Numbered from the stretch's first letter, positions 23,192-47,440 are shown. The stretch is 64,000 nt of DNA from a virus (IMGVR_UViG_3300023119_000004); one strand, 5' to 3'. Program-made: numbers and translations. Notes: generated by a model from the sequence alone, not told the origin.

Positions 23192-23220
23192 ATTATAGTA
23201 TATTTAACGGTAAATGTCAA
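23192..23220 (-). promoter_or_regulatory. sigma70-type promoter for the VWA gene
   Basis: TTGACA-N17-TATAAT. Confidence 0.8.
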
Positions 23221-28254: not shown

Positions 28255-29148
28255 TTATGTTCCCCAGGCGTTTCCGAAGATGTCGACGTGTAGTCTGGGT
28301 GTATAGCGCCAGCCTCGCTCCATTGCCAGTGTTGCGACTCCTCTTGTGTTGAGGCTGTATTCTTCTGACCTACCCCCAAGCGGCATAACATAGACCGGAA
28401 CATCGATTCCTTCTGCTCTGTATTGTTCAACTGCTTTTGTAACTTCATCCACATCTTCTTCGGTAGCCACAACAAACTTGAAATACATACTACTATTAGG
28501 TACATCGTAGTACTGCCTAGCAATGTCAGGCTTGATAGCAGTATCCCAAGGCTCTCCGCTAACGGAAAGTTTCGGACTGCACGACCAAGTGATATGAAAT
28601 GATCTTTCGTTGTTGAGATACTCTCGGAAATCATCTCTGAGAGACTGTGTTGTATTTGTTTCAAACGTAACATTTTTCAAATCCTCCATACGAGGGTGTT
28701 TAAATAGGTCCATATATAACCTCTGCCACCCTAGCAAAGGTTCACCGCCTGTTAGTATAAAATGAACATCCTGTCCATTATCCATCGTCCACTTACCTTG
28801 TGGAGTAAGACTTAGCACATAGTCAACTACTTCGTCAACTGTGTGGTCTTTCATATACTTCTTAAATTCTGGATAGATACTTGCATAGGTATCGCAACCT
28901 GTATGCACAATAGGTAAATCTTCAAACTTATTTACCTTGTCTAAAATACCATCATCAAGTAATTGTTTTACTTCTGGATTATACTTAATACCTTGTTCTA
29001 GTTTTTCTGCTCTATTAGGGTGCTTGTCTAGACCAAAGTTCATACAACGAAAGTTACAACCAAATGTACGCAAGAAAACAGAAGGTACGCCAACAAAACG
29101 TCCTTCGCCTTGTACACTATAAAATGCTTCACTATATCGTAACTTCAT
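28255..29148 (-). CDS. queE: 7-carboxy-7-deazaguanine synthase (radical SAM)
   Basis: YSEAFYSVQGEG, FLRTFGCNFRC...CDT, TGGEP, SPKL, PRLH. Confidence 0.92.
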   Translation of the reverse strand: MKLRYSEAFYSVQGEGRFVGVPSVFLRTFGCNFRCMNFGLDKHPNRAEKLEQGIKYNPEVKQLLDDGILDKVNKFEDLPIVHTGCDTYASIYPEFKKYMKDHTVDEVVDYVLSLTPQGKWTMDNGQDVHFILTGGEPLLGWQRLYMDLFKHPRMEDLKNVTFETNTTQSLRDDFREYLNNERSFHITWSCSPKLSVSGEPWDTAIKPDIARQYYDVPNSSMYFKFVVATEEDVDEVTKAVEQYRAEGIDVPVYVMPLGGRSEEYSLNTRGVATLAMERGWRYTPRLHVDIFGNAWGT

Positions 29149-29339
29149 TAAACAATCTCCTCTGCAATACCAAGGAACTCAGCAACAGCAAAAAATAATG
29201 CTAGTGCTACCACTGATCCTGTGTAAGCGGCTACTAAGCAACCTGCTAAACGTAATCCGCTTTTAATTAAACTTACATAAAAATGTCCTTTGCCTGGATC
29301 TTTAGGTGCCGGAACAAATACTTTTTCTGGAATAGGCAT
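29148..29339 (-). CDS. Small membrane protein
   Basis: Two hydrophobic segments; translationally coupled. Confidence 0.55.
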   Translation of the reverse strand: MPIPEKVFVPAPKDPGKGHFYVSLIKSGLRLAGCLVAAYTGSVVALALFFAVAEFLGIAEEIV

Positions 29340-30022
29340 TAGCAGGCAAACTCCTGTTGTAATTTGATATTGTCCATAAATTCTTTCTTAGTACCTGCAT
29401 CGTCTTTAAAAGCACCTTTTAGTACTGTAGTTTGTGTTAAACTACTAGTTGCCATAATACCACGATTCTCACAACAACCATGTGTTGCTTGAATATACAC
29501 ACCTAAGTGTTCGGCATCAGTTGCTTTCTGTATTTCACGAGCAATATCATTTGCAAGTTCTTCTTGCAGAGTACCACGTCTAGCACACCATTGTGCAATA
29601 CGTGTATACTTAGATAGTCCAATAAGTTTATTAGCGGCAATAATACCAATGTATGCTACACCAGTTACTGGTTGATGATGATGTGAACATACACTCTTAA
29701 GTTCGCTACGAACTACAAGCATACCTTCATATCTATCTTCGCTATCATTAGGAAATGCAGTTGCTGGTGGAATTGGATCATAACGTCCTTGCATTAATTC
29801 GTTAAAGTACATCTTTGCAAGACGTCTTGCGGTACCTTTTGAATTAGGATCATTATGACGATCAATTACCAATGTATCAAGAACATTTTCAAATGCTAGT
29901 GTAGCCTCTTCAATTAGTTCTTCTTTATCGCCTTTTTGTAAGACTTCGGAGATGTTGTCACCTGCCCAATAGCGGATGCCAGCATCTTCTAATTTTTGTT
30001 TTACTTGTTTACTTTTGCTCAA
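29339..30022 (-). CDS. folE: GTP cyclohydrolase I (TTG start)
   Basis: SVCSHHHQP, IGLSKYTR, LQEEL, HGCCENRG. Confidence 0.95.
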   Translation of the reverse strand: MSKSKQVKQKLEDAGIRYWAGDNISEVLQKGDKEELIEEATLAFENVLDTLVIDRHNDPNSKGTARRLAKMYFNELMQGRYDPIPPATAFPNDSEDRYEGMLVVRSELKSVCSHHHQPVTGVAYIGIIAANKLIGLSKYTRIAQWCARRGTLQEELANDIAREIQKATDAEHLGVYIQATHGCCENRGIMATSSLTQTTVLKGAFKDDAGTKKEFMDNIKLQQEFAC

Positions 30023-30066
30023 TTTATCTCTCCGAGTTATAGACGTGGATGTCTAATATAGTTTAC

Positions 30067-30095
30067 ATTATATACTTTATTTAGGTTTTTGTCAA
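30067..30095 (-). promoter_or_regulatory. sigma70-type promoter for folE-queE
   Basis: TTGACA-N17-TATAAT with CTAAATA in the spacer. Confidence 0.8.
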
Positions 30096-30113
30096 GTATA
30101 TTATACACGAATA

Positions 30114-30323
30114 TTAAAAATATTTGTTCAATACTTCTAACTGATCATGATATTCTGCAATAACTTTCAGTTCTTTTTCAATGGCTTCCAAAACGTCCGG
30201 ATGCTCACCTACGCCTGCTGAATTTTTCAAATACACTTCTACATTCATTGCGTGTTTGGCAATGTGTCCTTTTGCGTGTTCTTTGATTGCTTCAATCATG
30301 TTTTCTCTGTTATATTCTGGCAT
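30114..30323 (-). CDS. Small hypothetical protein
   Basis: SD and packed ORF; GVGEHPD motif. Confidence 0.6.
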   Translation of the reverse strand: MPEYNRENMIEAIKEHAKGHIAKHAMNVEVYLKNSAGVGEHPDVLEAIEKELKVIAEYHDQLEVLNKYF

Positions 30324-30335
30324 TGTTTTTCCTTT

Positions 30336-31196
30336 CTACTTAAATTGGTCTTTCATATAGTCTGTGCCAATAATTTGATGAATATCAACATCATAATGTT
30401 CATCATCAATTGTTTTGGTTCCTACATTAATATCTTTGTGTTGTAGAAACCAATCTTCTACGTTATCTTTTGCAACTTCAACCAAATCAAAATTAAAATA
30501 ATCATTTAAGTTGTCTGGAATCCAAGTCCATTTGTTTAACGCAAAAATTTTCAGTTTCGCATTGTTATTGCGACAAAGTTCTTGTAAGATATATAGTTCT
30601 TTTAAAAACTCACGTTGTGCTTTTAGGTTCATTAACTCCATCCAAGTCTTTACAGTCATGTATGGTTGTGTTCTTAGATCGGGATCGCCCATCATAAACC
30701 TTGGATGAAATTTAACTGTAAATTGACAATTTTTTTGGAAGTCTTGAGCATAACTTTGCATAGGTATATCAAATACATCTTGTGCTTCGTTGTGTATTCG
30801 TTTAATCCAGCAATCAATATTTCCTTTTGTAGTTTCTAATTCATATAGTTCATCTAAAGGAATCATCTTTTCGTAGTGTTGTGGGTACTGCATACATAGT
30901 CTAAAACGATTCCAATATGTTTGTTGTACAACTACTTCTTCAATATCGTCATACGTTTTAAAAAGATGTGAAAGCCATTCGCTATATTCCCACCAGCCGT
31001 TTGATGGATTTGCAAAGATGGCACCATCTTTACCTTTGCTGTTAATATAAAACTCTGCCCAGTTGTTGTCGTTCCATTTACCAGAAAACTTCCAGTTTTC
31101 TAAATTCCAGTCTTGTTCATTAGGAGGCAAGTCGCCAATATGGTAACCTGATGTATGACTACACCCTAGTGCAACAATTCTACTCATTAAACACAA
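30336..31196 (-). CDS. SGNH-hydrolase-like protein
   Basis: VALGCSHTSG block I; DDEHY near the C-terminus. Confidence 0.45.
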   Translation of the reverse strand: MCLMSRIVALGCSHTSGYHIGDLPPNEQDWNLENWKFSGKWNDNNWAEFYINSKGKDGAIFANPSNGWWEYSEWLSHLFKTYDDIEEVVVQQTYWNRFRLCMQYPQHYEKMIPLDELYELETTKGNIDCWIKRIHNEAQDVFDIPMQSYAQDFQKNCQFTVKFHPRFMMGDPDLRTQPYMTVKTWMELMNLKAQREFLKELYILQELCRNNNAKLKIFALNKWTWIPDNLNDYFNFDLVEVAKDNVEDWFLQHKDINVGTKTIDDEHYDVDIHQIIGTDYMKDQFK

Positions 31197-31606
31197 TCTC
31201 CCATATCTTGAAATAAACTTGGTTGTTTAGGATCTCTTGTTTGGTATTTTTGTTTTGTGGGAAGAACGCCTCGAACACCACCTTTAGGATCGTCCATATC
31301 ACCGTCACGTCTAAAAATTAAATGAACGTGTGGATACATACAAGTTTGGCCTGCACTAGCACCAATGTTAATACCAATGTTATATCCTGTGATGTCGTTG
31401 TCTGCTTCTACATTTTGTTTACCCATTGCTAGTGCAAATTTAAAACAACGTAGTATTTCTTCGTCTAAGTTTTCCTTAGGTACAACTAAAGTGTGTCCTG
31501 GTGTTACAGGAAATTTGTCGTTATATACTACAAAATCTCTTGTATCATAAACAACATCTGACCACGGTGCTCTACCGTCTGCTTGTGCTTTTTCTAAAGT
31601 ATCCAT
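31187..31606 (-). CDS. HIT family nucleotide hydrolase
   Basis: DKFPVTPGHTLVVPK, GYNIGIN, AGQT..YPHVHLI. Confidence 0.9.
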   Translation of the reverse strand: MDTLEKAQADGRAPWSDVVYDTRDFVVYNDKFPVTPGHTLVVPKENLDEEILRCFKFALAMGKQNVEADNDITGYNIGINIGASAGQTCMYPHVHLIFRRDGDMDDPKGGVRGVLPTKQKYQTRDPKQPSLFQDMGDCV

Positions 31607-31607
31607 A

Positions 31608-32330
31608 TTATTTCACCACCTTAATTAATCGTTTTGGTCTAAGTTTAAGTGCTCGACGCATTAAGTTTATTATACCACCTTTTTTAAACTGTGTCAAGTA
31701 GTCTTTTCGTTCAAGTTCTTTTATAACTTCTGGGGTAAGTTCACACTCAACCAATTTAATATTTTCAGTTAATTTTGGTGTAGTAAACTTAACATAACAT
31801 AGTGGGTCTCCTCTTTTTATTTCTAAAGTTTCACCAACTTTATTAAAAACATATCCCCAACTAATACTTCTAATCCAACTATGTATATTGTAACTACCGC
31901 CTACAACACCATCTTTATAATCATTTCGATGTAAGAAAGGCGGAGTAATTTCCATCAAGCAAGGTTCGTCTGCAATAAACAAGTATCTTAAATTAAATTG
32001 AAACATAGGTTTATTTAGATCATACATATCATTACTATTATGAAATGTAACTAAACTTTGCAAGTGTTGTGTATCTACTTCGTCGCTGTTAATTTCAATA
32101 CCGTCTTTGGTACTTGTAGCAGTAAAGTTAACAGGACTTTTTAGAACATAATAAGAGTTATACCAAGAAGCAAACGATGGGCAATCAATTACACCTCGTT
32201 TATTGTAGTCTTTATTCTTTACTGTTAACTTAGGTAGTTTTTCAGGTTCTAGAATTAATAACTCTGGAATAGGACCTGTCCAACACCAACCGACTGTAGT
32301 CATTAAAACTCCTGCTTGTAAAAATAGCAA
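31608..32330 (-). CDS. Hypothetical protein
   Basis: Packed ORF. Confidence 0.55.
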   Translation of the reverse strand: MLFLQAGVLMTTVGWCWTGPIPELLILEPEKLPKLTVKNKDYNKRGVIDCPSFASWYNSYYVLKSPVNFTATSTKDGIEINSDEVDTQHLQSLVTFHNSNDMYDLNKPMFQFNLRYLFIADEPCLMEITPPFLHRNDYKDGVVGGSYNIHSWIRSISWGYVFNKVGETLEIKRGDPLCYVKFTTPKLTENIKLVECELTPEVIKELERKDYLTQFKKGGIINLMRRALKLRPKRLIKVVK

Positions 32331-33076
32331 TAGTAACCTTTGCCGTTAGTATCGCCACCGTCGTTGCTTAATTCTTCACCATCATACTTTATAGCATATA
32401 CAAGATCTTCACCATTAGGTGCTTCGCCAATACAGAACTTTAATTTTTTTGGATCAAACAATCCAGGTGTAGTAAACCCTGCATCGAAGAATGTGCCTTT
32501 TTCTGCACTATAAAATTGACAAATATAATCACCCTTTTCAGGATATCTATCTCCATAATCGTGATTGTCATCGTAGCATTCTACATATTCATCATCAGTA
32601 GAAAACTTTTCTGATGTTTCTTCCATCCACTCACTTAGGTCTTGTCCTTCAACAATATCTTCAATAAACTTTGAACGATACTCATCACTCTCTACTTTTT
32701 CGATAGTAAGATATGCACCATCAAGTGTTGGCCCCCATGTATGATCAAATTCATCAAGCGGTTCATACCAACTAGCACCTACTTCGCCTGTATCATCGTG
32801 CATGAACATTGCTTCTTTAGGAATGTCTTTTGCTTTAACTTCTTCGTAGTGATCATCTTCATTTACTTCTTTTACTGATTTATCTTCAGCACTTGTAATG
32901 TAATGAATGGCATCGCTGTCACCATGATCTTTTGTATGTGGATACCAAAAATCAAATGCTTCTTTTGAAATACGCATATATGAACATTCGGCACCATAAC
33001 CACTTAATGAAAGTCTATAGTGATGTGGACCTTTTATTTCTTCAACTAGTTCTTGTTTTTCTTCTGAAGTAGCCAT
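32303..33076 (-). CDS. Acidic hypothetical protein
   Basis: Packed ORF, D/E-rich. Confidence 0.6.
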   Translation of the reverse strand: MATSEEKQELVEEIKGPHHYRLSLSGYGAECSYMRISKEAFDFWYPHTKDHGDSDAIHYITSAEDKSVKEVNEDDHYEEVKAKDIPKEAMFMHDDTGEVGASWYEPLDEFDHTWGPTLDGAYLTIEKVESDEYRSKFIEDIVEGQDLSEWMEETSEKFSTDDEYVECYDDNHDYGDRYPEKGDYICQFYSAEKGTFFDAGFTTPGLFDPKKLKFCIGEAPNGEDLVYAIKYDGEELSNDGGDTNGKGYYCYFYKQEF

Positions 33077-33318
33077 TATCTTTTTCCTTGATTATTAATA
33101 CAAACTGCTTGTGTTCCAGGTGGAAAATATTCAGTACCTGTGCCTAGTTCGTTTAGTAAAATATCACGACCTATAAAGCACTCTTCCATAGTGTCAAACT
33201 CGTAGTATGCTTCGATATAAGGCTCATCGTAACCTGCTTGGGCATTAAACATTATATTGATAAAAACTAAAAACCACATTAGTATTGACCAACATTTTCC
33301 CAAGGATAAACAAGCCAA
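33076..33318 (-). CDS. Small exported/membrane protein
   Basis: Hydrophobic N-terminus. Confidence 0.45.
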   Translation of the reverse strand: MACLSLGKCWSILMWFLVFINIMFNAQAGYDEPYIEAYYEFDTMEECFIGRDILLNELGTGTEYFPPGTQAVCINNQGKR

Positions 33319-33824
33319 ACATCTTCTTCAAACTTATTAACCGTGTCGCAATGATAGTTAACACACCCATCAAACTTTGATGAAAGGTTATCTGTTAATA
33401 CTGCGAAACGAACGTTATTACCCCATACCTTCTCCCATTTAGGATCGTTAGGTAAACAACCTGAACGCCAGTCGTCCTTGATCCAATTAAATGTAGCACC
33501 AGTATCGTTGATATCGTCTACAATAAGAATTTTCTTTTCTAGTGGTCCGCCTGTAACACGGTCTTCTTCTTTTTCACGATATCCAAAGGCATCTTCTGCC
33601 ATCCAAAAATTGCTTTCACTTTCTCTGTTATCATCACGCAGGCTTACCTTAAGTGCTTCGCAACGAATGCCGGTCATGTTTGAAATGATAGTAGCAGGCA
33701 CATTACCGCCTCGTGTAATACCTACAATGTAATCAGGCTTCCAATTATCATAATACATTTGTAAAACAATGTTATTACACATACGTTCTACATCTGCCCA
33801 ACTGTAATATTTCTTTTTAATCAT
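33279..33824 (-). CDS. Purine (xanthine/guanine-type) phosphoribosyltransferase
   Basis: VGITRGG, ILIVDDINDTGAT PRPP loop, WLVYPWE. Confidence 0.88.
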   Translation of the reverse strand: MIKKKYYSWADVERMCNNIVLQMYYDNWKPDYIVGITRGGNVPATIISNMTGIRCEALKVSLRDDNRESESNFWMAEDAFGYREKEEDRVTGGPLEKKILIVDDINDTGATFNWIKDDWRSGCLPNDPKWEKVWGNNVRFAVLTDNLSSKFDGCVNYHCDTVNKFEEDVWLVYPWENVGQY

Positions 33825-34990
33825 GATGATTTCCTCTTGAAGTTACCGCTAATAGAATATCTATCCTTTCCTGATAAATTTTTTCCTGTGTAGTGCGGTA
33901 TGCTACTAGGAAAAATAAACATCGTCCCTGTGCTTGGGTGTACAGTCTTTTCATATGATTCTGTATTTGCAAATAGTTTAAAATGCAGATCACCTTGATT
34001 GTCAAGTACACGTGGATAATATACAAAAGATATATCACTACCGTGATGATTATGAAAATTAGTACTACCGTTTGGCTCAGTTTTATGAACCCAAATACCT
34101 GTTAGTTCTAAATCATCTCCATAGTACTCTTGTACAGTTCTTTCTAGTTCTGCTTGTAAATGTGTGCAACCTGCAGAACTAGGATAAACTAAATCTTCGT
34201 AATGTGTGTCATTAGGGTCATTATCAATTCTGTTATCACAAACTTCAATTTCTTCAACGATTTTATCGTGAATAACATTTGTAATAGCAGTTTCTAGTAC
34301 ATCAATTCTAGCAACAGTATGTACGGTTTCTTTTTGAGGCATAGGAGGAACATACTCTTTTGTCCAAGGATAGGTTTCTGGATATCCCATTCTAATAGCA
34401 CCTTCTCCTTTACCATGCCTATCTGGTTCGTATTTTACAAATTTAAATGTAGGCGTAAATCTATGTTCATTCCTTAAAGGAGTAGCAGTATGTAGGATAT
34501 TGCTTTTCCAAATAAGCATACGTCCTGGAATAGGAGGTATTGCCCAAATAGTTGGATAGTCGCCTGTTCCTTCTAAGTTACCTTTTTCTTGTTTGTTAAT
34601 AATAAACTTAGTTTCGCCACCGTCATTGATATCCCAGTTATTATTTGCATAAAACATAAATGTCCAAGCATCATCGTTTTCGTCATCTACATGATAATAT
34701 GCTTGTTCTCTTGGAGCAAAAATGTTTGCGTGTGATCTTTTTAAAATACAACCATGAACCTCTGGTACATACTTTTCACAAAACTCCCATAAAGCATGGA
34801 ATATTTTTGTGCCTAAGTAATCACCAGTACTCATTCCAGTTGGCGGTAAGTCAACATTATCAACTTCACCATACATATATAACATATTCTTAACGTCTAA
34901 AACAAGTTCGTTAAGGTGTGGCGGCGACCACACGTCATCAAAAATTTTCATTCTACCATCTAGTAGAGTTTGTACTTTAGGCTCCTGCAT
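33821..34990 (-). CDS. Tandem two-domain 2OG-Fe(II) oxygenase
   Basis: Domain 1 YHVD...HTAT..RF; domain 2 FHNH...HYTG...RYSISGN. Confidence 0.75.
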   Translation of the reverse strand: MQEPKVQTLLDGRMKIFDDVWSPPHLNELVLDVKNMLYMYGEVDNVDLPPTGMSTGDYLGTKIFHALWEFCEKYVPEVHGCILKRSHANIFAPREQAYYHVDDENDDAWTFMFYANNNWDINDGGETKFIINKQEKGNLEGTGDYPTIWAIPPIPGRMLIWKSNILHTATPLRNEHRFTPTFKFVKYEPDRHGKGEGAIRMGYPETYPWTKEYVPPMPQKETVHTVARIDVLETAITNVIHDKIVEEIEVCDNRIDNDPNDTHYEDLVYPSSAGCTHLQAELERTVQEYYGDDLELTGIWVHKTEPNGSTNFHNHHGSDISFVYYPRVLDNQGDLHFKLFANTESYEKTVHPSTGTMFIFPSSIPHYTGKNLSGKDRYSISGNFKRKSS

Positions 34991-35492
34991 CTTTTTCTTT
35001 CAAATACTCCTCATTATGGATCCAACGATATCCTTCGTTTCTAACCCAACGCATAAATCCCCATTCTTGAACTTTACGTCCCATAAAGAATAAACTCCAA
35101 CAAGGGATTTCATTTCCGTTTTCATCCTTTTGTAATTCTAACCAATGCAAGTCGTCTGCTTTACGCATACGAAAATGCCCAGGTCCTCTCCAAACTCTTG
35201 TACTACCACATACGTGACCTTCTTGTGCAAAGATTGGAATATGTTCCCAATAACCACCTTTAAGAATAAAAGTTGCATAACTCCATGGGTGGTCATGTAG
35301 TGTGGGCTCATCACTTACAAGAACTTTGTGTAGTGTGATATTAAAAGGAAAGTGTTTTCTATTTTTAAGAAATAGGTAATAACGGATAAGGTAAGGCACC
35401 TTTCCGTCTCTGTCTGTAATTACTCGACGCCTGCCGAGTTTGTCCATAATTTTAGAAAGGAACATCATCATCTTTCCTACTGTTATAATCAT
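34977..35492 (-). CDS. Cupin-like hypothetical protein
   Basis: LHDHPW...E...H pattern. Confidence 0.5.
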   Translation of the reverse strand: MIITVGKMMMFLSKIMDKLGRRRVITDRDGKVPYLIRYYLFLKNRKHFPFNITLHKVLVSDEPTLHDHPWSYATFILKGGYWEHIPIFAQEGHVCGSTRVWRGPGHFRMRKADDLHWLELQKDENGNEIPCWSLFFMGRKVQEWGFMRWVRNEGYRWIHNEEYLKEKDAGA

Positions 35493-35835
35493 CCTTACAC
35501 AAGTTATATATTTCTAAAAACTTTTCATACTGTAGTTTTAGGGCAGGGTATAACTTAATCATATCTTCGATCTTATATTCTGCCGGCCAATTATCGCCAT
35601 ACTCTCCAAGTGTTATACTAGATGGAAAATCACCAGTATCAAAAGTTGTATCAAAACTTGTGTCAACATTAACAGTATAAGTGCCATCGCTTTGTACGTA
35701 ACTTGTATCTATTGGATATGTAGTTGAATCCATTGTTGAATACGATGTAATTCCGCCTACAGTTGCACCTGGGCCTGTATAATCGATATTAGTATTATCT
35801 AGTGTAATAGTAAATTTCTTTTCATCATCGTCCAT
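35452..35835 (-). CDS. Hypothetical protein
   Basis: Packed ORF, T/D-rich. Confidence 0.5.
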   Translation of the reverse strand: MDDDEKKFTITLDNTNIDYTGPGATVGGITSYSTMDSTTYPIDTSYVQSDGTYTVNVDTSFDTTFDTGDFPSSITLGEYGDNWPAEYKIEDMIKLYPALKLQYEKFLEIYNLCKDDYNSRKDDDVPF

Positions 35836-36892
35836 TATTAATCACCTTGTAAAGTGCTTGACCTGAAAAGAAGTCTTCTTTTAATTTTGTAACTTGTTTA
35901 AGTAACACTGGAAGATAATTGTCATAGTTTTCCATGTAATCAGTAATTCTGTCAACTAAGACTCTTCTATATTTCTTGTAAGCAAAGAAGTCTTCTGTCC
36001 ATTCGCTTGGATACTTAAATTCATCTAATCCCATTTCGCTATAACTTAAACGATCCGGAACCATCGGAATAGCATTAACTAGTGCGCCTTCATACCAACT
36101 AATACCAAGTGTTTCTTGTAAGTTAGCACTAAACACTAGTTTTGCTTTACCTAGTAGGTTATGATACTCATTCTTTGTTAACGATTGTTCTTGACAAATA
36201 ATAAGTTCATAGTTAGGTAAATGTTCTTTTAAGTCTCTAAATATTTCTGGTTGTTTCTCTGGAGCAACTCTATGCGGAAACAGAATAATATTTTCTTTAG
36301 GCATACCTTTGTAAGAGTCTAAACTATTTTTTAGATACTCCATAGGCCATCCTACACGATGAAATTCTGTTTTATAATCGCCATATGCATATGGCTTCAA
36401 TTGGAATGCTTTTTTAAACATTTCAATATGGAATTCTGTAGCAAAGAAGTTATCATGATAACATTCTAGCATACTTTGTTCTGCAAGACGTACCCAAGGT
36501 TTATCACCAATTAGTCTGCCCAAGAAATCTTGTGGGTCATAACTACCAGCGTGCCAGAGGCCACCAACGCGAATATTAACACCAAGTAACTCTGCCATGT
36601 AACGTAGTTGTATAACTGTAGGATTCCAGGCATCGGTATAGAGAAAATAATCACCGTCCTTAATTTTACCATTGCAGAACATCTCTCCAATTTGTTCTAG
36701 TTGTTTACTCTTGTAAACATTAGTACCGCCAAAGTTAAGAAATGCCCCAGGCGTAGTAGCCTGAGGCGTCTCTCCTCCACTGATAACAGTGACTTCGCTA
36801 TTAGTAGCACGTTGTAACTGCTTAGGAAGATGTTCCTTCCACTGCTTAGTATAACGTGTATCTACTGCTTCGATGTCAACTATATAAATCAA
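35825..36892 (-). CDS. GT-B fold glycosyltransferase
   Basis: HRVAPEKQP and QETLGISWYE (ExxGxxxxE) motifs of GT4-like enzymes. Confidence 0.75.
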   Translation of the reverse strand: MIYIVDIEAVDTRYTKQWKEHLPKQLQRATNSEVTVISGGETPQATTPGAFLNFGGTNVYKSKQLEQIGEMFCNGKIKDGDYFLYTDAWNPTVIQLRYMAELLGVNIRVGGLWHAGSYDPQDFLGRLIGDKPWVRLAEQSMLECYHDNFFATEFHIEMFKKAFQLKPYAYGDYKTEFHRVGWPMEYLKNSLDSYKGMPKENIILFPHRVAPEKQPEIFRDLKEHLPNYELIICQEQSLTKNEYHNLLGKAKLVFSANLQETLGISWYEGALVNAIPMVPDRLSYSEMGLDEFKYPSEWTEDFFAYKKYRRVLVDRITDYMENYDNYLPVLLKQVTKLKEDFFSGQALYKVINNGR

Positions 36893-37095
36893 TGAAACTT
36901 CCTTTTATTAAATTTTCGCTTTGGCTTTCGCGAAATTTTTGAAGGATCTAAATAACTTTGGTAAGTGCGAGACTTTTTATTATAAAGATCTGCTTCGTTA
37001 AAAATAAACCCGTTGAAACGGCAAAAGTCACGATAACTATCTAAGTCATCGAAAATTTGAACCACGTCAGGGCGTTTATCCCAATACTTGCTCAT
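36889..37095 (-). CDS. Small basic hypothetical protein (start refined to MSKYW at 37095)
   Basis: SD AAGGAAG upstream of 37095. Confidence 0.55.
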   Translation of the reverse strand: MSKYWDKRPDVVQIFDDLDSYRDFCRFNGFIFNEADLYNKKSRTYQSYLDPSKISRKPKRKFNKRKFH

Positions 37096-37108
37096 TTTAA
37101 TGCTTCCT

Positions 37109-37564
37109 TTAGTTTCTAGCATATTCAATGTGGGCACCGTTCTCTCCATCTTCGGAGACATCGATGTGGACTTCACGTCCAGGGTGTTTAGCACGGATTT
37201 GTTCATACAAATCATCTGCCATCATTTCACAACTCTTATAATCTAGTTCAAGGGTTTTCTCCTCATAAAGTTTTTCTAACCATCTTTTGAATTGAATAAA
37301 TTCGATATCTCTGTCGTTGTGTGTAACTGAGATAGCGACTTTGAAATGGAATATGTGTCTGTGGGGATATCCCAAAAACGAAACATCATATTCATCACCT
37401 GTTGCAAGACTAGGATCATCTAGTGCCGCAGGATACTTGTGGATTCCTTCCTTTCGGAATGTTACCCAAATCATTCTCTTTGCGTTTTCCATAATTGCCT
37501 TTTCGTTATCTTCTCTCATCATTCTCAACATATAATTGTGATAAGATTCTCTTACTGTTTCCAT
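37109..37564 (-). CDS. dpdL: QueD-like T-fold protein, DpdL candidate
   Basis: LGYPHRHIF (LxxxHRHxF), SCE, VSEDGENGA; located in the folE/queE/dpdA locus. Confidence 0.65.
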   Translation of the reverse strand: METVRESYHNYMLRMMREDNEKAIMENAKRMIWVTFRKEGIHKYPAALDDPSLATGDEYDVSFLGYPHRHIFHFKVAISVTHNDRDIEFIQFKRWLEKLYEEKTLELDYKSCEMMADDLYEQIRAKHPGREVHIDVSEDGENGAHIEYARN

Positions 37565-37566
37565 TT

Positions 37567-37595
37567 ATTATAACTTCTTTCTTAGTCATTGTCAA
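37567..37595 (-). promoter_or_regulatory. sigma70-type promoter
   Basis: TTGACA-N17-TATAAT. Confidence 0.75.
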
Positions 37596-38121
37596 CCGGA
37601 TTATCGTTTTCATATTTGGACCAATCTGTAAATTTTGAACGGTCTTGTAAATCGTGTACCTGATGAATCCAAACACCGGCATTAGTTGCTTTAAAATCTT
37701 TGTCGTCAATTTTGATACACGCATTATAATTAAGTTGATCAATGTAAGGAATTTTTACACTAATCTGACTAATAAAGTTTGTTTTTTCGTTGTAACCGCT
37801 TTCTAACACCCACTCATGATATTTTACATCATAATCAAGTGTTACATGATATCCTTCTTTAAGCAAACCGTAAATTAGTGTATCCCAAGCCTTGTTAGTT
37901 TCTTCTTCACCATTTGGTAAAACTATTTCAAAACTTTGATTAGCACCCAAGTAAATATGGTCTACGTGCTTTGCTTTTGCTTGTTCTAATACTTCATCTA
38001 ACGGACGACATCCAACTACAAATAGTGTATCCATATCGTATGCTGGTGTTTTCTCTACTTCATATCCAGTAAAATAAACAACATCATCTTTTACAATGCC
38101 GTCTGAGTAATCACGTTTCAT
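37582..38121 (-). CDS. Uncharacterised protein of the deazaguanine locus
   Basis: Between dpdA and dpdL; HIYLGANQSF motif. Confidence 0.6.
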   Translation of the reverse strand: MKRDYSDGIVKDDVVYFTGYEVEKTPAYDMDTLFVVGCRPLDEVLEQAKAKHVDHIYLGANQSFEIVLPNGEEETNKAWDTLIYGLLKEGYHVTLDYDVKYHEWVLESGYNEKTNFISQISVKIPYIDQLNYNACIKIDDKDFKATNAGVWIHQVHDLQDRSKFTDWSKYENDNPVDND

Positions 38122-38279
38122 GATTGTAATCTCTCAATTTCCTGTTTAACTATTAATTTCTCTTGTTTCATTTTCTTAAGTGCCGCATCATCTATATAAT
38201 TACTATAACCTCTTTGGATCTCTTTGTCAAGTGTTTTATGCTTGATTATTAGTGCTTCCAATCTGTTTTCTTTAGTCAT
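38118..38279 (-). CDS. 53-aa DUF465/YdcH-like coiled-coil protein (not in ORF track)
   Basis: MTKENRLEALIIKHKTLDKEI...LKKMKQEKLIVKQEIERLQS; SD AAGGAG; ATGA overlap with the next gene. Confidence 0.7.
   Translation of the reverse strand: MTKENRLEALIIKHKTLDKEIQRGYSNYIDDAALKKMKQEKLIVKQEIERLQS
38202..38230 (-). promoter_or_regulatory. sigma70-type promoter
   Basis: TTGACA-N17-TATAGT. Confidence 0.55.
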
Positions 38280-38299
38280 ATGCTCTCCTTAATATAACA

Positions 38300-38890
38300 T
38301 TATAGTGTGTCGTTGTCAAGTCCAAATCCTTCAATATCGCCATTAAATGCAATACTAATCCTATCTTTCTTGCTCCAATTTTCTTTAACTTGATGATTAA
38401 TCCAACCTGGGAAAGAAACTAATTTACCAGTTTGTGGAATAACTGTAAATCTACAACCGTTATAAGAATTGGCCGCTTGAATTAGTTTAGGTGGTAGAGC
38501 ATAGTCTACGATATTAGATGGGGGGAATAAAACTAAATCTCCGCAGTTTTGTTCGGCTTGTGGATAGTATACACAGGCTACGAAGTGTTTAGGGTGTAGA
38601 TGTGTTTCTACAATGTTTGATGTTTGTTCTAAAGGCTTTTGTACATTTAGCCAAGCCTGTGTGGGTTTAATTTCATACCCATCAACCAAGTTCCACAGTT
38701 GTGTGAGCATTTTAAAATGTTCTCTTACCGCTTCTACTAGCGGTTGAAGAACAGGCTCGGCTAAATTTAAATGATTACTTTGACCTCTGTGCTTAACATT
38801 CTTGTATGCAAACTTAATAAGTTCGTCATTGTTAATGTCGCTAAGGTGCTCGTCTGAGAACGGAGTAGTAAACAAGTCAACTATTGCCAT
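38300..38890 (-). CDS. 2OG-Fe(II) oxygenase (TIGR02466-like)
   Basis: AWLNV, HLHP, ACVYY, FPGWINHQV, RISIAFN. Confidence 0.85.
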   Translation of the reverse strand: MAIVDLFTTPFSDEHLSDINNDELIKFAYKNVKHRGQSNHLNLAEPVLQPLVEAVREHFKMLTQLWNLVDGYEIKPTQAWLNVQKPLEQTSNIVETHLHPKHFVACVYYPQAEQNCGDLVLFPPSNIVDYALPPKLIQAANSYNGCRFTVIPQTGKLVSFPGWINHQVKENWSKKDRISIAFNGDIEGFGLDNDTL

Positions 38891-38903
38891 TCTCTGATCT
38901 CCT

Positions 38904-39092
38904 TTAAATTTTATTTTTAAATTTTAAAATAGCATCTTTTAGTGCTAGTTTGATTTTCTTATGCCTTTGCAAAAGTTCTTTTGAAGTCCATGAACGATCT
39001 CCGTCACGTTCCTGTTCCATCTCTGTAACTTTTTTATCGTAATATTGATGCTCTTCTTCTAAACGTTTTAGTTGCTTATTAGATTTGCTCAT
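38904..39092 (-). CDS. DUF465/YdcH-like small coiled-coil protein
   Basis: LKRLEEEH..YDKKV...LQRHKKIKLALKDAI. Confidence 0.6.
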   Translation of the reverse strand: MSKSNKQLKRLEEEHQYYDKKVTEMEQERDGDRSWTSKELLQRHKKIKLALKDAILKFKNKI

Positions 39093-40635
39093 CTTCTAAC
39101 TCCTCGAGTTTATGTTCTTGTTCTTCAGTAAATTCACTGTCACTTGAGTCATCTGAAGTTGTTGTGTCTGCTTCTTCAAATAAATTAGCAAACTGTGTAC
39201 TAGCATTAACTGTCTTTTTACCAGTAGCACCTCTAGTGCCAATAACTGACATCCAGAATCTTGAAAATTCTTCTATGACCGCATTCGCTTCGTCTCTGTT
39301 GTCAGTTGCAAATATCGCTTCCACAACATCTCTAAAAAATAACCTGTCAAAACGTTCTTCGACAAGCATCGCTGGAATTCTGCCTGCGTCATATTCTCTG
39401 TTTGCTTCTTGTACTGCATTAATGTGACTCCATACATTATGACCCATTTGGATCGCATATGAAAAACTATCCCAAGATGTTTTTCCTTCTTTACCTACTT
39501 TATTTAGATCGCCTGGTGCATAGATACAAACATCTTTGGCTGTTAGTCCTGTTGTAATAGGCGAGTCTTTAAAACTTCCGTGTTTGTTTTCACGTACAAA
39601 TGCTTGACCAAACGGTGTAAGGTCTTGTGCTAAACCTTTGTCGTCAATGCTAGGTACCATTCTGTATACCCATTTACTTCTATCTTTTGTTTCAAGTTCA
39701 CAATAGATTTGACCATTTGCTGTTGCTAAGAATGGACTAGCACAGTCAAATGTAATTGTAAAGTTTTCGTTATGATGTTTACGAACTGCTCTTTGTACAT
39801 CAGTTAGTAGTGTTGCCCACTCTAGTTTACTTGTACCCAAGAAGTGCATAAAGTCATGTTTGCCTTTTTCAAGTAATCCATCAAAACGTAGTGCAACAAT
39901 ACGTTTTAATGCTAGGTGAATATCACACATATTCTGACCACCCATTGACCACCCATTAAAGTGATCAGTATACTTTTTAGGATCGCAATAGTCTTTCATT
40001 TGCTGATACCAATCTTCTGCATCAGCATGATTCTCACCTTGTAGTACATTTAAGAATTTACAATTACCATTACGATTTTTCATAAAGTAATCGTTATTAA
40101 TACGTGTGGCATTTACTGCTTCTTGGTATGTACTAATACCAGTTGCTTTAACACCTTGTGGACTACGAGCAACCCAAGCCGGAATATCAAGGATCATACC
40201 GTAATCCATATATTCGTCCATCCAACGTAAAACTTGTTCACGTTTCTTTTTCGCCTTAGGACAGTTAGGATCTTTCCAATCACCTTCCCATACACCTTTA
40301 CCAATCTGGAATCCTCCAGAGTCGCCAAGCAACCAACTAGTATTGCGATCTCTGTTTCGGATCATATCTTCTTTAGGTGAGTCTTTGTTAATATCTAATT
40401 CAGCGTGACCTGCGGAATACAATGACCAATTATATTGAAACATACCGTCATTGCGATTTAACCAGTTCAGACTTTCAACGTCATTAGGAAAGTTACTAGG
40501 AATTCTAGTTCTTTCAACATATTCTTCACGACGCTGTTTACCAATGAATGTAGCATAGAAGCCACTAATCGCTGGTAGGAAGATTGCGTAATCCTTTTGC
40601 TGTGCTGTTAAGTCCGTATTCAAATTATTCTCCAA
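39079..40635 (-). CDS. dpdA: TGT-fold transglycosylase, DpdA-like DNA 7-deazaguanine insertase
   Basis: GDSGGFQ, LDIP, VLQG, SMGG, HFLG, FDCAS catalytic/substrate motifs; no CxCxxC zinc site; in the folE/queE locus. Confidence 0.82.
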   Translation of the reverse strand: MENNLNTDLTAQQKDYAIFLPAISGFYATFIGKQRREEYVERTRIPSNFPNDVESLNWLNRNDGMFQYNWSLYSAGHAELDINKDSPKEDMIRNRDRNTSWLLGDSGGFQIGKGVWEGDWKDPNCPKAKKKREQVLRWMDEYMDYGMILDIPAWVARSPQGVKATGISTYQEAVNATRINNDYFMKNRNGNCKFLNVLQGENHADAEDWYQQMKDYCDPKKYTDHFNGWSMGGQNMCDIHLALKRIVALRFDGLLEKGKHDFMHFLGTSKLEWATLLTDVQRAVRKHHNENFTITFDCASPFLATANGQIYCELETKDRSKWVYRMVPSIDDKGLAQDLTPFGQAFVRENKHGSFKDSPITTGLTAKDVCIYAPGDLNKVGKEGKTSWDSFSYAIQMGHNVWSHINAVQEANREYDAGRIPAMLVEERFDRLFFRDVVEAIFATDNRDEANAVIEEFSRFWMSVIGTRGATGKKTVNASTQFANLFEEADTTTSDDSSDSEFTEEQEHKLEELEDEQI

Positions 40636-40870
40636 ATGCCTTAAATGCTAAGAGAGGAACAAGCCAAGGATAAACCAAATGCTCAACCAACTCATATACA
40701 ACCAAAATAGTGAGCAACACGGCCCATAGTTTTGATGTTTTTGCTTTGTTGCTAACATATTCAAATATCCTCGAATGCCACTTTCCTAAACGTTCTATTA
40801 TACCTGGTTTCGGCATAAACTCCTTACTTAGATTGTGCTGGAAGAATATAATCGTACTCAACCATTCCAC
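40625..40870 (-). CDS. Small membrane protein
   Basis: Hydrophobic C-terminal segment. Confidence 0.4.
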   Translation of the reverse strand: MEWLSTIIFFQHNLSKEFMPKPGIIERLGKWHSRIFEYVSNKAKTSKLWAVLLTILVVYELVEHLVYPWLVPLLAFKAFGE

Positions 40871-41555
40871 TATCTACTGTGATTTGCATAGCACCTTGAT
40901 CTGAAATCTTCATGTTTAATTTACCATCAAGATTTAGAATTGCTTGTACTTGTGCTACAGGCCATGCCCAAGTGTGTTGTAATGCACCAGTTACACCTGT
41001 TTGGAAATTAAACTTACCAGCGTGTGTACTGTGATCACCAAAACTAAACACTAGGTTATCACCGTTAGTTGAAACATTAAAAGTTGGCTCTTCTGAATGC
41101 GCCGCACTTTGTAGTTTCATTCTATTAATACTTGCAACAGTTGGCTCAAACTCTACTTCCCAACTTGCACCTTTAAACTTAACACTCTTTAGTTTTTCTT
41201 CAATGATTTGTTTGTTCATAAAACGATAATCATTTTGGAAGTCACCTGCTTCGTTTTCAAAGTGAATGTGTGTTGGAACAGTTTCGCCATTACGTTCTGC
41301 TTTCTCTACAGAAAGTTTTGCGTTCTTTTGATACTCAGGATTCTTTAAGTGTAGTGCTAACTTGTCTAAGTTAGGCATACCAAAAGTACCATTGAACTCG
41401 CCTACGGAATTCTTTGCTTTTGCAGTTAAGATAACACTTCTATCTTCTGCCATACTTTCGATTGTTGTTGATTGATCATCGCCACTTACTTTAACTAGAT
41501 TAAGAAAACCTAGTGAATGTGTGTGTGCGACAACGTCTTGTAAAATGTCTTTCAT
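40824..41555 (-). CDS. DNA polymerase sliding clamp (gp45/PCNA-like)
   Basis: 243 aa, beta-rich two-domain pattern ending YDYILPA; near polB. Confidence 0.65.
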   Translation of the reverse strand: MKDILQDVVAHTHSLGFLNLVKVSGDDQSTTIESMAEDRSVILTAKAKNSVGEFNGTFGMPNLDKLALHLKNPEYQKNAKLSVEKAERNGETVPTHIHFENEAGDFQNDYRFMNKQIIEEKLKSVKFKGASWEVEFEPTVASINRMKLQSAAHSEEPTFNVSTNGDNLVFSFGDHSTHAGKFNFQTGVTGALQHTWAWPVAQVQAILNLDGKLNMKISDQGAMQITVDSGMVEYDYILPAQSK

Positions 41556-41569
41556 TGGTTGCTTCTCCT

Positions 41570-42325
41570 TTATATTACATTATATTTAGGTTTTTGCGAA
41601 AAGTCAAGTTCTTTATTGGTCTCAATAAAGTCAAAAATATTAACTTTCGGCTTCCACCCTAAATTCTTTAAGACAGTTATATCGGCTGTATTGTCCATAC
41701 GTTCATTGTCCTTAGTTGTTTGTTCAGGATCAATGTTTGCCAATTTAGTTAAATCTGTAAGTGCTACAGACGTTCCTGTACCAATATCAATTATTCCTTT
41801 GGTATCTGTTTTGATTAATAGTAGAATTGCGTTTACAATATCACTGACGTGAATAAAATCTCTTTTATGGTTGGTAACGTAGGGGACATCGTTTCTTAGT
41901 AATCGAGGTATAAACATATTGGGCCTTGTCTGCTTGTTATTATATATAGTTGTAAATCGCATACCTAAACTGTTATCTGGCGCAATTTCTTCCATAACCT
42001 TTTTAGTCATCGCATAAGGATTTAAAAAAGGTTCTTTGGCTGTGCTAGAACTAGCATACAAAATTCTTGTGTTTGGAAAACTTTGAAAAATCTTTTTAGA
42101 TGCTATAACATTATTTTCCCAAAACAGTTTTGGATTATCAATGCTTCTTCGTAGTCCTGATTCTCCGGCAAGATGAATTACTAAATCAACATCAAAGTTT
42201 ATTTCTAGATCAAGTATATCATTACCTTCTAGTCTATCAATACCAATTACAAAATGTTCTTTTACTAACTCTGCATATAGTTCTTGACCTACTAAACCTT
42301 TATGTCCTGTTAGTAAAATTTTCAT
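41570..42325 (-). CDS. NAD-dependent epimerase/dehydratase
   Basis: LLTGHKGLVG, IHLAG, YASSS, YAMTK. Confidence 0.9.
   Translation of the reverse strand: MKILLTGHKGLVGQELYAELVKEHFVIGIDRLEGNDILDLEINFDVDLVIHLAGESGLRRSIDNPKLFWENNVIASKKIFQSFPNTRILYASSSTAKEPFLNPYAMTKKVMEEIAPDNSLGMRFTTIYNNKQTRPNMFIPRLLRNDVPYVTNHKRDFIHVSDIVNAILLLIKTDTKGIIDIGTGTSVALTDLTKLANIDPEQTTKDNERMDNTADITVLKNLGWKPKVNIFDFIETNKELDFSQKPKYNVI
41579..41607 (-). promoter_or_regulatory. sigma70-type promoter for clamp-dpdA
   Basis: TTGACT-N17-TATAAT. Confidence 0.75.
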
Positions 42326-42711
42326 ACTAATTCCTCAGCAATGTATCTTTTTAATTCTTTGTCTTGCACATCTGTAGGTATTTCATTTTTATAAAAAAGT
42401 CTATAACTGTCAGAACCGTACTTACCAATACCGTATAATTGTGTAGCATCTTCTCCATCCCAATCTTCAAATTGTTCGCTCATTCGATACAGTCTTTCTG
42501 CTCGAACACGTTGCATACCTAACGGCTTTAGCACATCTTCAATTTCTTTTTTAGTAGCATATAGCAAACTACTATGTGTAGGCCAACGTCTAAAGAACTC
42601 TGTAAGTACAGGTTTAGTTTGACGCCTGTTTACCTGATTAAGACATATAACGCCAACCATATGTTGCCATACATTGTCGACTTGCTGTTGAACCATTAGA
42701 TCATCACGCAT
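42322..42711 (-). CDS. MBD4-like HhH DNA glycosylase (start refined to MRDDL at 42711)
   Basis: ICLNQ, LKPLGM..VRA, LYGIGKYGSDSY. Confidence 0.8.
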   Translation of the reverse strand: MRDDLMVQQQVDNVWQHMVGVICLNQVNRRQTKPVLTEFFRRWPTHSSLLYATKKEIEDVLKPLGMQRVRAERLYRMSEQFEDWDGEDATQLYGIGKYGSDSYRLFYKNEIPTDVQDKELKRYIAEELV

Positions 42712-43033
42712 CGTATCTCTTTCCATCAAACACACAAACAAAGTATAATTCTTCATCACCTGCGTGTACACGATGAAATACTCCGTCTTGAATTAGTACT
42801 GTATCGCCTGGATAAACACTAAACGTTTCATCATCAAGTTGCATATTACCTGTACCTTCGATAAACAAGTAAACTTCTTCTTGACCTTCGTGTTTATGTC
42901 CTGTTGTACTTTTATTAGGTCTTAATCTAGTACTACTTACAATAAGATTTTTTAATCCTTTATTATCTTTTACAGTATAGCGGTCATCTTGTTTAACAAC
43001 TTCACCGCCTATATCCCAGTTACCGAATTTCAT
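42704..43033 (-). CDS. Cupin domain protein
   Basis: GHKHEGQEEVY...G...PGD...HRV. Confidence 0.85.
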   Translation of the reverse strand: MKFGNWDIGGEVVKQDDRYTVKDNKGLKNLIVSSTRLRPNKSTTGHKHEGQEEVYLFIEGTGNMQLDDETFSVYPGDTVLIQDGVFHRVHAGDEELYFVCVFDGKRYDA

Positions 43034-47411: not shown

Positions 47412-47440
47412 ATTATATATTCGTTTGTTCTTAATGTCAA
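47412..47440 (-). promoter_or_regulatory. sigma70-type promoter
   Basis: TTGACA-N17-TATAAT. Confidence 0.8.

Follow-up and report, generated by a model that had tools for sequence, protein, structure and literature searches.

A glycosyltransferase gene accompanies a putative DpdL-type 7-deazaguanine DNA-modification locus in environmental jumbo phages

The 64,000-nucleotide stretch of viral DNA IMGVR_UViG_3300023119_000004 (referred to in full as the window) originates from a salt-marsh jumbo phage. On its minus strand, flanked by the DNA polymerase/clamp genes and an RNase H gene, it carries a locus that we regard, with high confidence, as a 7-deazaguanine DNA-modification module. The locus contains genes for FolE, QueE, a DpdL-like protein and a putative DpdA-like DNA transglycosylase, together with a gene for a GT4-type glycosyltransferase (GT) whose association with deazaguanine genes recurs across phage lineages. 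From the sequence evidence, we consider the odds even that the GT takes part in this pathway and that the modified base ends up bearing a sugar.

Deazaguanine genes of the window

A preliminary description of the window had listed folE, queE, a QueD-like gene with the motif LxxxHRHxF and a gene for a protein with the tRNA-guanine transglycosylase (TGT) fold but no zinc site, as well as a GT gene, an epimerase gene, two 2-oxoglutarate (2OG) oxygenase genes and a 179-aa open reading frame (ORF). All of these were recovered on the minus strand at the stated positions. FolE, GTP cyclohydrolase I (29339..30022, minus strand), matched PF01227 above the cut-off (3.4e-38). QueE, the radical S-adenosylmethionine (SAM) synthase of 7-carboxy-7-deazaguanine (CDG; 28255..29148, minus strand), matched phrog_2076 over its full length (8.5e-53), while the Pfam Radical_SAM and NCBIfam QueE models matched it partially and under their cut-offs.

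The DpdL-like protein (151 aa; 37109..37564, minus strand) is a QueD-paralogous T-fold protein and the proposed CDG decarboxylase. It matched phrog_17812 (8e-36) and carries the motif FLGYPHRHIFHF, in which L64-GYP-H68-R-H-I-F72 matches LxxxHRHxF, the sequence that in DpdL replaces the CxxxHGH of QueD (Cui et al., PMC10516641), and aligns with the motif of the phiST and ACP17 DpdL proteins. The alignment extends throughout the protein, with 38% identity to DpdL of phiST, 55% to that of ACP17 and 57-58% to that of PA5oct; the phiST protein CGPG_00067 was matched at 2e-9 by tblastn and at 3e-16 by phmmer. Canonical QueD differs from DpdL by an insert of ~25 residues. A sequence-only PDB search with DpdL gave no match. 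The preliminary description had named LxxxHRHxF as the mark of DpdL and linked it to 2'-deoxy-7-deazaguanine (dDG) in phiST, exactly as published: phiST encodes DpdL, lacks QueC and has 100% dDG (PMC10516641). The annotated ATG lies three bases from the end of the dpdL promoter and the DpdL homologues are 114-127 aa long, so the true start is probably Met25 (37492).

The fourth protein, a putative DpdA-like DNA transglycosylase (518 aa; 39079..40635, minus strand), represents a divergent TGT-fold subfamily that was recognized from an AlphaFold model and a fold search. No Pfam, PHROG or NCBIfam model matched this protein, and PDB searches, both with its sequence only and with a profile of its family, were empty. 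The AlphaFold (AF2) model had a predicted TM-score (pTM) of 0.81, and the top 50 PDB matches found with Foldseek were all tRNA-guanine transglycosylases (probability 1.0, E ~2e-7). In 26 relatives the residues D105SGGFQ, D150, Q199G200, G232G233 and D297C (the FDC nucleophile) are invariant; both catalytic aspartates, D105 of DSGGFQ and D297 of FDC, are kept. The CxCxxC...H zinc motif is absent from the family alignment. The homologue in PA5oct (35.7% identity) is the sole TGT-like protein detected in the genome of that phage, whose DNA resists restriction enzymes with G in their sites; the study reporting this predicts only a 7-deaza-G (PMC12191111). As regards known DpdA subfamilies, the protein could be assigned neither to DpdA3 (BLASTP E 1.8 and hhalign probability 2.3% against phiST CGPG_00065) nor to the ACP17-type DpdA, to which it bears a weak likeness only (E 0.029, probability 12.6%).

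Neither QueD nor QueC was found in the window by tblastn, as the preliminary description had stated. Its view that the gene set is atypical for lacking this enzyme did not hold, since QueD (PF01242) is encoded elsewhere, outside the equivalent region, in all five related whole records (PA5oct, Phosso and, from IMG/VR, three relatives 157-268 kb in size), and the absence of a canonical QueD therefore describes the window only. In the relative G001, queD lies ~50-60 kb from the GT gene, and in several more distant relatives it is located inside the cluster. The gap thus appears to be a property of the window edge and not of the phage. QueC was detected neither in the complete PA5oct and Phosso genomes nor in the three large IMG/VR relatives, and the Pfam TGT model identified no other TGT in these five. 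By its gene content, the phage appears to match the QueC-less gene set linked to DpdL by Cui et al.

Two further observations concern QueD itself. The motif CxxxHGY, not the canonical CxxxHGH, is present in QueD of the marine relatives, in that of Phosso and in one of the two PA5oct copies. The latter are 6-pyruvoyltetrahydropterin synthase (PTPS) paralogues located ~2 kb apart, one of them canonical. An Rfam search for a preQ1 riboswitch in the vicinity of queD was negative in five relatives.

A GT4-type glycosyltransferase linked to the deazaguanine genes

The GT (355 aa; 35825..36892, minus strand) was classified by its predicted fold and donor-site residues as a GT4-type retaining GT-B glycosyltransferase. 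Its model had a mean predicted local distance difference test score (pLDDT) of 94.7, and the nearest folds were those of BshA, MshA, the glycogen synthase GlgA and PimB' (TM 0.66-0.70 to BshA, MshA and GlgA). Within the family, the R208/K213 pair and the E260-x7-E268 (EX7E) donor-site motif are conserved. No Pfam, PHROG or NCBIfam match was obtained for the window protein, and a sequence-only PDB search was empty; PF00534 (Glycos_transf_1) matched 32 of the 53 family members, with the window protein below the threshold, and the family profile matched PDB 8xsg at 3e-5. No T4-type DNA glucosyltransferase (GT63/GT72) was present among the top 50 PDB or BFVD fold matches or the top 30 from Swiss-Prot.

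The GT gene family is very abundant, with no fewer than 8000 clusters (90% identity), and it occurs on at least 346 IMG/VR contigs and also in culturable phages. A search of cellular genomes with the single GT protein returned only two contigs of metagenome-assembled genomes (MAGs), PBPT01000016.1 (335 kb, L188) and PBLX01000022.1 (61 kb, L189), with a GT at 70-73% identity. Their bins are assigned to Neomarinimicrobiota and Legionellales; both contigs are probably mis-binned jumbo-phage DNA and not evidence of a host.

The distribution of the GT gene was compared with that of dpdL in a phage database of 50,697 records. The GT was present in 22 records and DpdL in 28, and both occurred together in 17, compared to ~0.01 expected under independence. 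The joint records represent five lineages, and GT and DpdL were always encoded within ~4 kb of each other. A reverse test used the 80 IMG/VR dpdL loci most like that of ACP17, 46 of which had at least 4 kb on each side; the GT was present in 43 of these well-flanked loci, at a distance of 0.4-3.8 kb (median 1.1 kb). The co-occurrence of the two genes, which the preliminary description had proposed as a check of its reading, is thus clear in both directions.

The GT gene adjoins dpdL and/or dpdA in PA5oct-like phages, Phosso, ACP17, X1/BUDD, BCSR5 and several metagenomic lineages. The gene orders are (i) DpdA-GT-DpdL...PRT-like-QueE in PA5oct, (ii) DpdL-GT-x-FolE in Phosso, (iii) QueD-x-FolE-u179-DpdA-GT-DpdL-QueE in ACP17, (iv) FolE-...-GT-DpdA-DpdL-QueE in X1, and (v) DpdL-...-GT-DpdA-x-QueE in BCSR5. 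Distant GTs (25-35% identity) on metagenomic contigs are found in the arrangements DpdL-GT-x-DpdA (L094), QueE-FolE-x-DpdL-x-x-GT-DpdA (L096) and FolE-DpdL-GT-x-QueE (L100). The only GT-positive phages without DpdL are those of the PhiXhv-12 group, where the GT is encoded beside Gat-QueC. In PhiXhv-12 (L104, PV764601.1 120910-122433) the latter is annotated as 'L-glutamine-D-fructose-6-phosphate aminotransferase'/'GlmS', although it is really a Gat-QueC fusion with a QueC domain (PF06508, 2e-49) and a GATase domain, 33% identical to gp06 of phage 9g. In total, the association of the GT with deazaguanine genes is retained in at least eight lineages with rearranged gene orders. Within the clade of the window, for which conservation was counted over 82 related loci, the conserved proteins are DpdA, the 179-aa protein (u179), DpdL, the product of a small ORF, the GT, a 171-aa cupin-like protein, a Gpt-like phosphoribosyltransferase (PRTase), a HIT protein, FolE and QueE.

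Several peculiarities were seen in individual loci. In PhiXhv-12, the genes that come after Gat-QueC encode a PIG-L deacetylase, the GT-family member and a GFO/IDH/MocA oxidoreductase. In the Xanthomonas phage X1 (L092, OQ427096.1 70090-70623), a PP-loop ATPase of the 3'-phosphoadenosine-5'-phosphosulfate (PAPS) reductase family, which may be a QueC analogue, is encoded beside folE. On the ENA contig k141_1617686 (L097), the GT-family gene stands beside a second, ordinary GT4 gene, with genes for a PurT-like ATP-grasp protein, a PRTase and a NUDIX protein on the opposite strand, a combination that recalls deazapurine nucleoside pathways. In the Rhizobium phage RHph_I1_18 (L105, MN988519.1 41144-44075), which lacks the GT, dpdL is immediately followed by a gene for a macro-domain (Appr-1-p processing) protein, and the ACP17-type DpdA of this phage bears a C-terminal DUF3310/kinase-like extension.

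Proposed pathway and alternative explanations

The pathway would start with established enzymology: FolE converts GTP into dihydroneopterin triphosphate (H2NTP), QueD, encoded elsewhere in the genome, forms carboxytetrahydropterin (CPH4), and QueE forms CDG. According to the literature proposal, DpdL would then convert CDG into 7-deazaguanine, and the 518-aa TGT-fold enzyme would exchange guanine in DNA for the deazapurine. The Gpt-like PRTase probably recycles the guanine released by this exchange to GMP and GTP for FolE. Finally, the GT would add a hexose or amino-sugar from a UDP-sugar to the deazapurine, either on the free base before insertion or on the base embedded in DNA; this step is proposed because of the conserved gene neighbourhood. 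The product, a glycosylated 7-deazaguanine, would protect the DNA against restriction enzymes as well as against glycosylases and nucleases specific for deazaguanine. Glycosylases that target dDG phages have been described (2025 preprint), which offers a plausible selective reason for the addition of a sugar. The wider proposal, namely that the highly abundant environmental jumbo-phage group together with PA5oct, ACP17, Phosso, X1 and BCSR5 has glycosylated 7-deazaguanine DNA, possibly with an amino-sugar and diversified between lineages by deacetylases, epimerases and methyltransferases, falls just short of an even chance on the gene-content evidence.

Several points weigh against a sugar-bearing base. 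The DpdL reaction is itself a proposal for phiST, biochemically unproven (PMC10516641). Many of the loci that carry both genes come from jumbo phages that are related, so that the counts given above overstate the number of independent events. The GT is absent from phiST, in which replacement by dDG is full, as well as from RHph_I1_18 and others, and it is therefore not part of the core pathway. Furthermore, 7-deazaguanine lacks a hydroxyl and offers no obvious O-acceptor for a sugar, and the closest folds in the structural comparison, BshA and MshA, suggest activity on small molecules and not on DNA.

The last two points also favour the strongest alternative, according to which the DNA contains plain dDG (or its 7-carboxy counterpart, dCDG) as in phiST, and the GT acts on another acceptor, merely sharing regulation or precursors with the modification genes. 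Its target could be a protein or the cell surface, or else a free intermediate (deazapurine or pterin) that is stored as a soluble glycoside. Indeed, phiST reaches 100% dDG with FolE, QueD, QueE, DpdL and DpdA3 alone. This explanation fits less well with the retention of the GT in or beside the dpdA/dpdL/queE group through rearrangements in all those lineages, with its position beside Gat-QueC in a DpdL-less phage, and with its occurrence always in replication modules and never in structural ones. We consider it unlikely, although it is the most serious competitor of a glycosylated base.

Modification at the nucleotide level is improbable. In that case the PRTase would make 7-deaza-GMP, the HIT protein and others would process it, and the polymerase would incorporate the modified dNTP, by a chemistry of the toyocamycin/tubercidin type, leaving the TGT-fold protein with a minor or different role. 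The PRTase gene is indeed present in 70 of the 82 loci, recurs in PA5oct and is located near NUDIX beside the GT in L097, and full replacement of G would be easier before replication. On the other hand, no PRTase gene is found in the ACP17 and X1 clusters, the TGT-fold protein retains its full set of catalytic residues and is conserved as much as the GT, and all deazaguanine phages studied so far reportedly use DpdA (PMC10516641).

Least probable of all is that a glycosylated pterin is the joint product of FolE, the T-fold protein and the GT (cf. the cyanobacterial biopterin glucoside; the combination of a FolE, a PTPS-like enzyme and a GT4 transferase resembles pteridine glycoside synthesis), or that the TGT-fold protein and the GT modify tRNA to a glycosyl-queuosine-like base of the kind that occurs in animal tRNA, given that QueE and the DpdA-like enzyme are always co-located with the GT, that the cluster lies in the replication module, that QTMAN_N (PF12038) had no match at E<=0.01 in the 53 GT-family members and GTDC1 was not among the top Swiss-Prot fold neighbours, and that PA5oct DNA withstands restriction enzymes cutting G-containing sites (PMC12191111).

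Accessory genes

The preliminary description had raised the possibility that the epimerase and the 2OG oxygenases take part in a sugar or hydroxyl hypermodification. The short NAD-dependent sugar epimerase/dehydratase (41570..42325, minus strand; PF01370, 1e-19) is a clade-specific accessory found in 55 of the 82 loci and missing from the PA5oct, Phosso, ACP17 and X1 clusters. Both oxygenases are variable: the two-domain 2OG-Fe(II) oxygenase (33821..34990, minus strand; PF13759 and PF13640) occurs in only 26 loci and the 196-aa 2OG-Fe(II) oxygenase (38300..38890, minus strand; PF13759, 5.6e-17) in only 14, and neither is present in the PA5oct, ACP17 and X1 clusters. None of the three can therefore count as a core component of a sugar or hydroxyl chemistry. 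Within the clade of the window, the short epimerase is a possible candidate for the supply of the donor sugar.

Other sugar-tailoring genes are located near the GT in more distant loci, i.e. those for a CE4 polysaccharide deacetylase and a methyltransferase in L096, for a dTDP-sugar isomerase and a UDP-GlcNAc 2-epimerase in L100, and for a PIG-L GlcNAc de-N-acetylase, a GFO/IDH/MocA oxidoreductase and a GNAT-containing protein in PhiXhv-12. Tailoring enzymes that vary while the transferase stays constant would, by analogy, match the pattern of the hydroxymethylcytosine (hmC) sugars in T-even phages.

The conserved partner gene u179 (37582..38121, minus strand) occurs in 76 of the 82 loci. Its product had no Pfam, PHROG, NCBIfam, PDB or Atlas match; the only PDB match of its profile was at chance level (E 0.6), and the profile search found only close marine relatives, none with domains. 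A u179 homologue is encoded between folE and dpdA in ACP17, and another elsewhere in PA5oct. Between dpdL and the GT gene, a small conserved ORF (annotated as 108 aa; 36889..37215, minus strand) overlaps the 3' end of dpdL; it has homologues in 73 of the 82 loci and had no family match.

Among the remaining conserved genes, the Gpt/XPRT-like purine PRTase (33279..33824, minus strand) matched PF00156 (1.2e-11), with xanthine PRTase as its top NCBIfam model (7e-11), and a weak homologue is found at the equivalent place in the PA5oct cluster. The 171-aa cupin-like protein (34977..35492, minus strand; 70/82 loci) matched phrog_4786, labelled 'cysteine dioxygenase' (1.9e-34). The HIT-family (HinT-like) nucleotide hydrolase/transferase (31187..31606, minus strand) matched PF01230 (4e-11) and the HinT model (2e-14), and its gene has its own promoter.

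A small HhH-GPD (EndoIII-like) protein (42322..42771, minus strand; PF00730, 2e-7) is encoded at varying positions in 39 of the 82 loci, among them L009, L015, L017, L033 and L043; the annotated GTG start of its gene overlaps the cupin gene. This protein may be either a glycosylase or a decoy that is related to the END-nuclease sensors. The 286-aa protein encoded at 30336-31196 had no family match; with GCSHTSG at its start and D..H at its end it looks, by eye, like an SGNH hydrolase and may be a sugar esterase. Genes annotated 'sliding clamp' (Phosso) and 'structural protein' (PA5oct) occupy the position syntenic to that of the gene for a 243-aa protein (40824-41555; phrog_12062), which lies between the epimerase gene and dpdA.

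Setting and transcription of the locus

All real genes between 46.2 kb and 25.9 kb lie on the minus strand, mostly with overlapping or near-abutting starts and stops. In the direction of transcription they encode a family-B DNA polymerase, an Rv2179c-like exonuclease, a small cupin, the HhH-GPD protein, the short epimerase, the 243-aa clamp-like protein, the 518-aa TGT-fold protein, the 196-aa 2OG oxygenase, u179 and the DpdL-like protein. These are followed by the small ORF, the GT, a 127-aa protein, the 171-aa protein, the two-domain 2OG oxygenase, the PRTase, three unknown genes, the HIT protein, the 286-aa protein, FolE, QueE, two more genes and the RNase H-like gene. Every modification cluster examined was likewise set in the replication module.

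No near match to the window DNA was present in the phage database, but its sequence was found again in salt-marsh metagenomes (at least 24 runs), where the contigs reach 312 kb. By protein similarity, the nearest cultured relatives of the polymerase are the jumbo phages Phosso, Atu_ph07 and the Rak2-like group, and those of the modification genes are Phosso, the PA5oct-like Wroclawviruses and ACP17.

Five perfect TTGACA-17-TATAAT promoters were found in the window (23192-23220, 30067-30095, 31669-31697, 37567-37595 and 47412-47440, minus strand), compared to 0.02 expected by shuffling, and all are on the coding strand. Three of them directly precede folE (30067-30095), the HIT gene (31669-31697) and dpdL with the GT gene (37567-37595). 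Since these are perfect sigma-70 promoters, early reading by the host RNA polymerase is probable, and the five promoters probably mark early transcription units of the jumbo phage. Early transcription of dpdL, the HIT gene and folE would probably fit the role in DNA protection expected from the gene content. Isoelectric points did not separate DNA-binding from other proteins, all the proteins being acidic.

Comparison with known systems

To our knowledge, eight 7-deazaguanine derivatives occur in phage DNA, none of them sugar-bearing, and a sugar-bearing purine would be the first in any DNA. No paper was found that links a glycosyltransferase to deazaguanine DNA or describes the GT of the window. 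The base pathway is already known (PMC10516641), and the closest described system is the DpdL-type dDG system of phiST (Cui, Hutinet et al., Nucleic Acids Research 2023, PMC10516641). It shares with the window FolE, QueD, QueE, DpdL with LxxxHRHxF, a DNA transglycosylase of the TGT superfamily, the lack of QueC and the position beside a DNA polymerase gene. It differs in its DpdA3, which cannot be aligned with the 518-aa protein, and the window module additionally has the GT4 GT, u179, the Gpt-like PRTase and the HIT protein, with queD far away.

Wroclawvirus PA5oct and Acidovorax phage ACP17 share with the window the GT (43% and 40% identity, respectively), DpdL, QueE, u179 and the position in the replication module. 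A homologous DpdA is found in PA5oct only, whereas ACP17 uses another DpdA subfamily (phrog_10773). Both clusters, mostly annotated as hypothetical, are without the 2OG oxygenases and the epimerase, and for PA5oct the reported evidence of modification is restriction resistance only (PMC12191111). Expression of dpdL and dpdA of ACP17 or phiST in E. coli did not yield dDG, and other enzymes are perhaps needed (Cui et al., PMC10516641); a glycosylated base, if confirmed, could explain this failure.

BshA and MshA of bacillithiol and mycothiol synthesis provide the nearest folds of the GT (TM ~0.66-0.69); like them, the GT is paired with a GlcNAc de-N-acetylase in PhiXhv-12 (PIG-L) and in L096 (CE4). 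The identity is only 10-14%, their acceptors are unrelated and the window locus shows no thiol chemistry. The glycosylated queuosine of animal tRNA (QTMAN/QTGAL) likewise combines a 7-deazaguanine in nucleic acid with a hexose, but in RNA and with the sugar on the cyclopentenediol side chain, and QTMAN_N was not detected in the GT family of the window.

Glucosylation of hmC in T-even phages follows the same logic, as a GT-B enzyme decorates a modified base with a sugar that differs between lineages. There, the acceptor is a hydroxymethyl group on a pyrimidine, and the enzymes are alpha- and beta-glucosyltransferases of GT63 and GT72, not GT4-like. DNA-modifying glycosyltransferases with new acceptors would be useful tools, and a glycosylated 7-deazaguanine would bear on phage escape from deazaguanine-specific glycosylases (Dag) and END nucleases. 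If the proposed pathway is correct, the locus would stand for a class of purine hypermodification not described before, with T-even hmC glucosylation as its pyrimidine counterpart.

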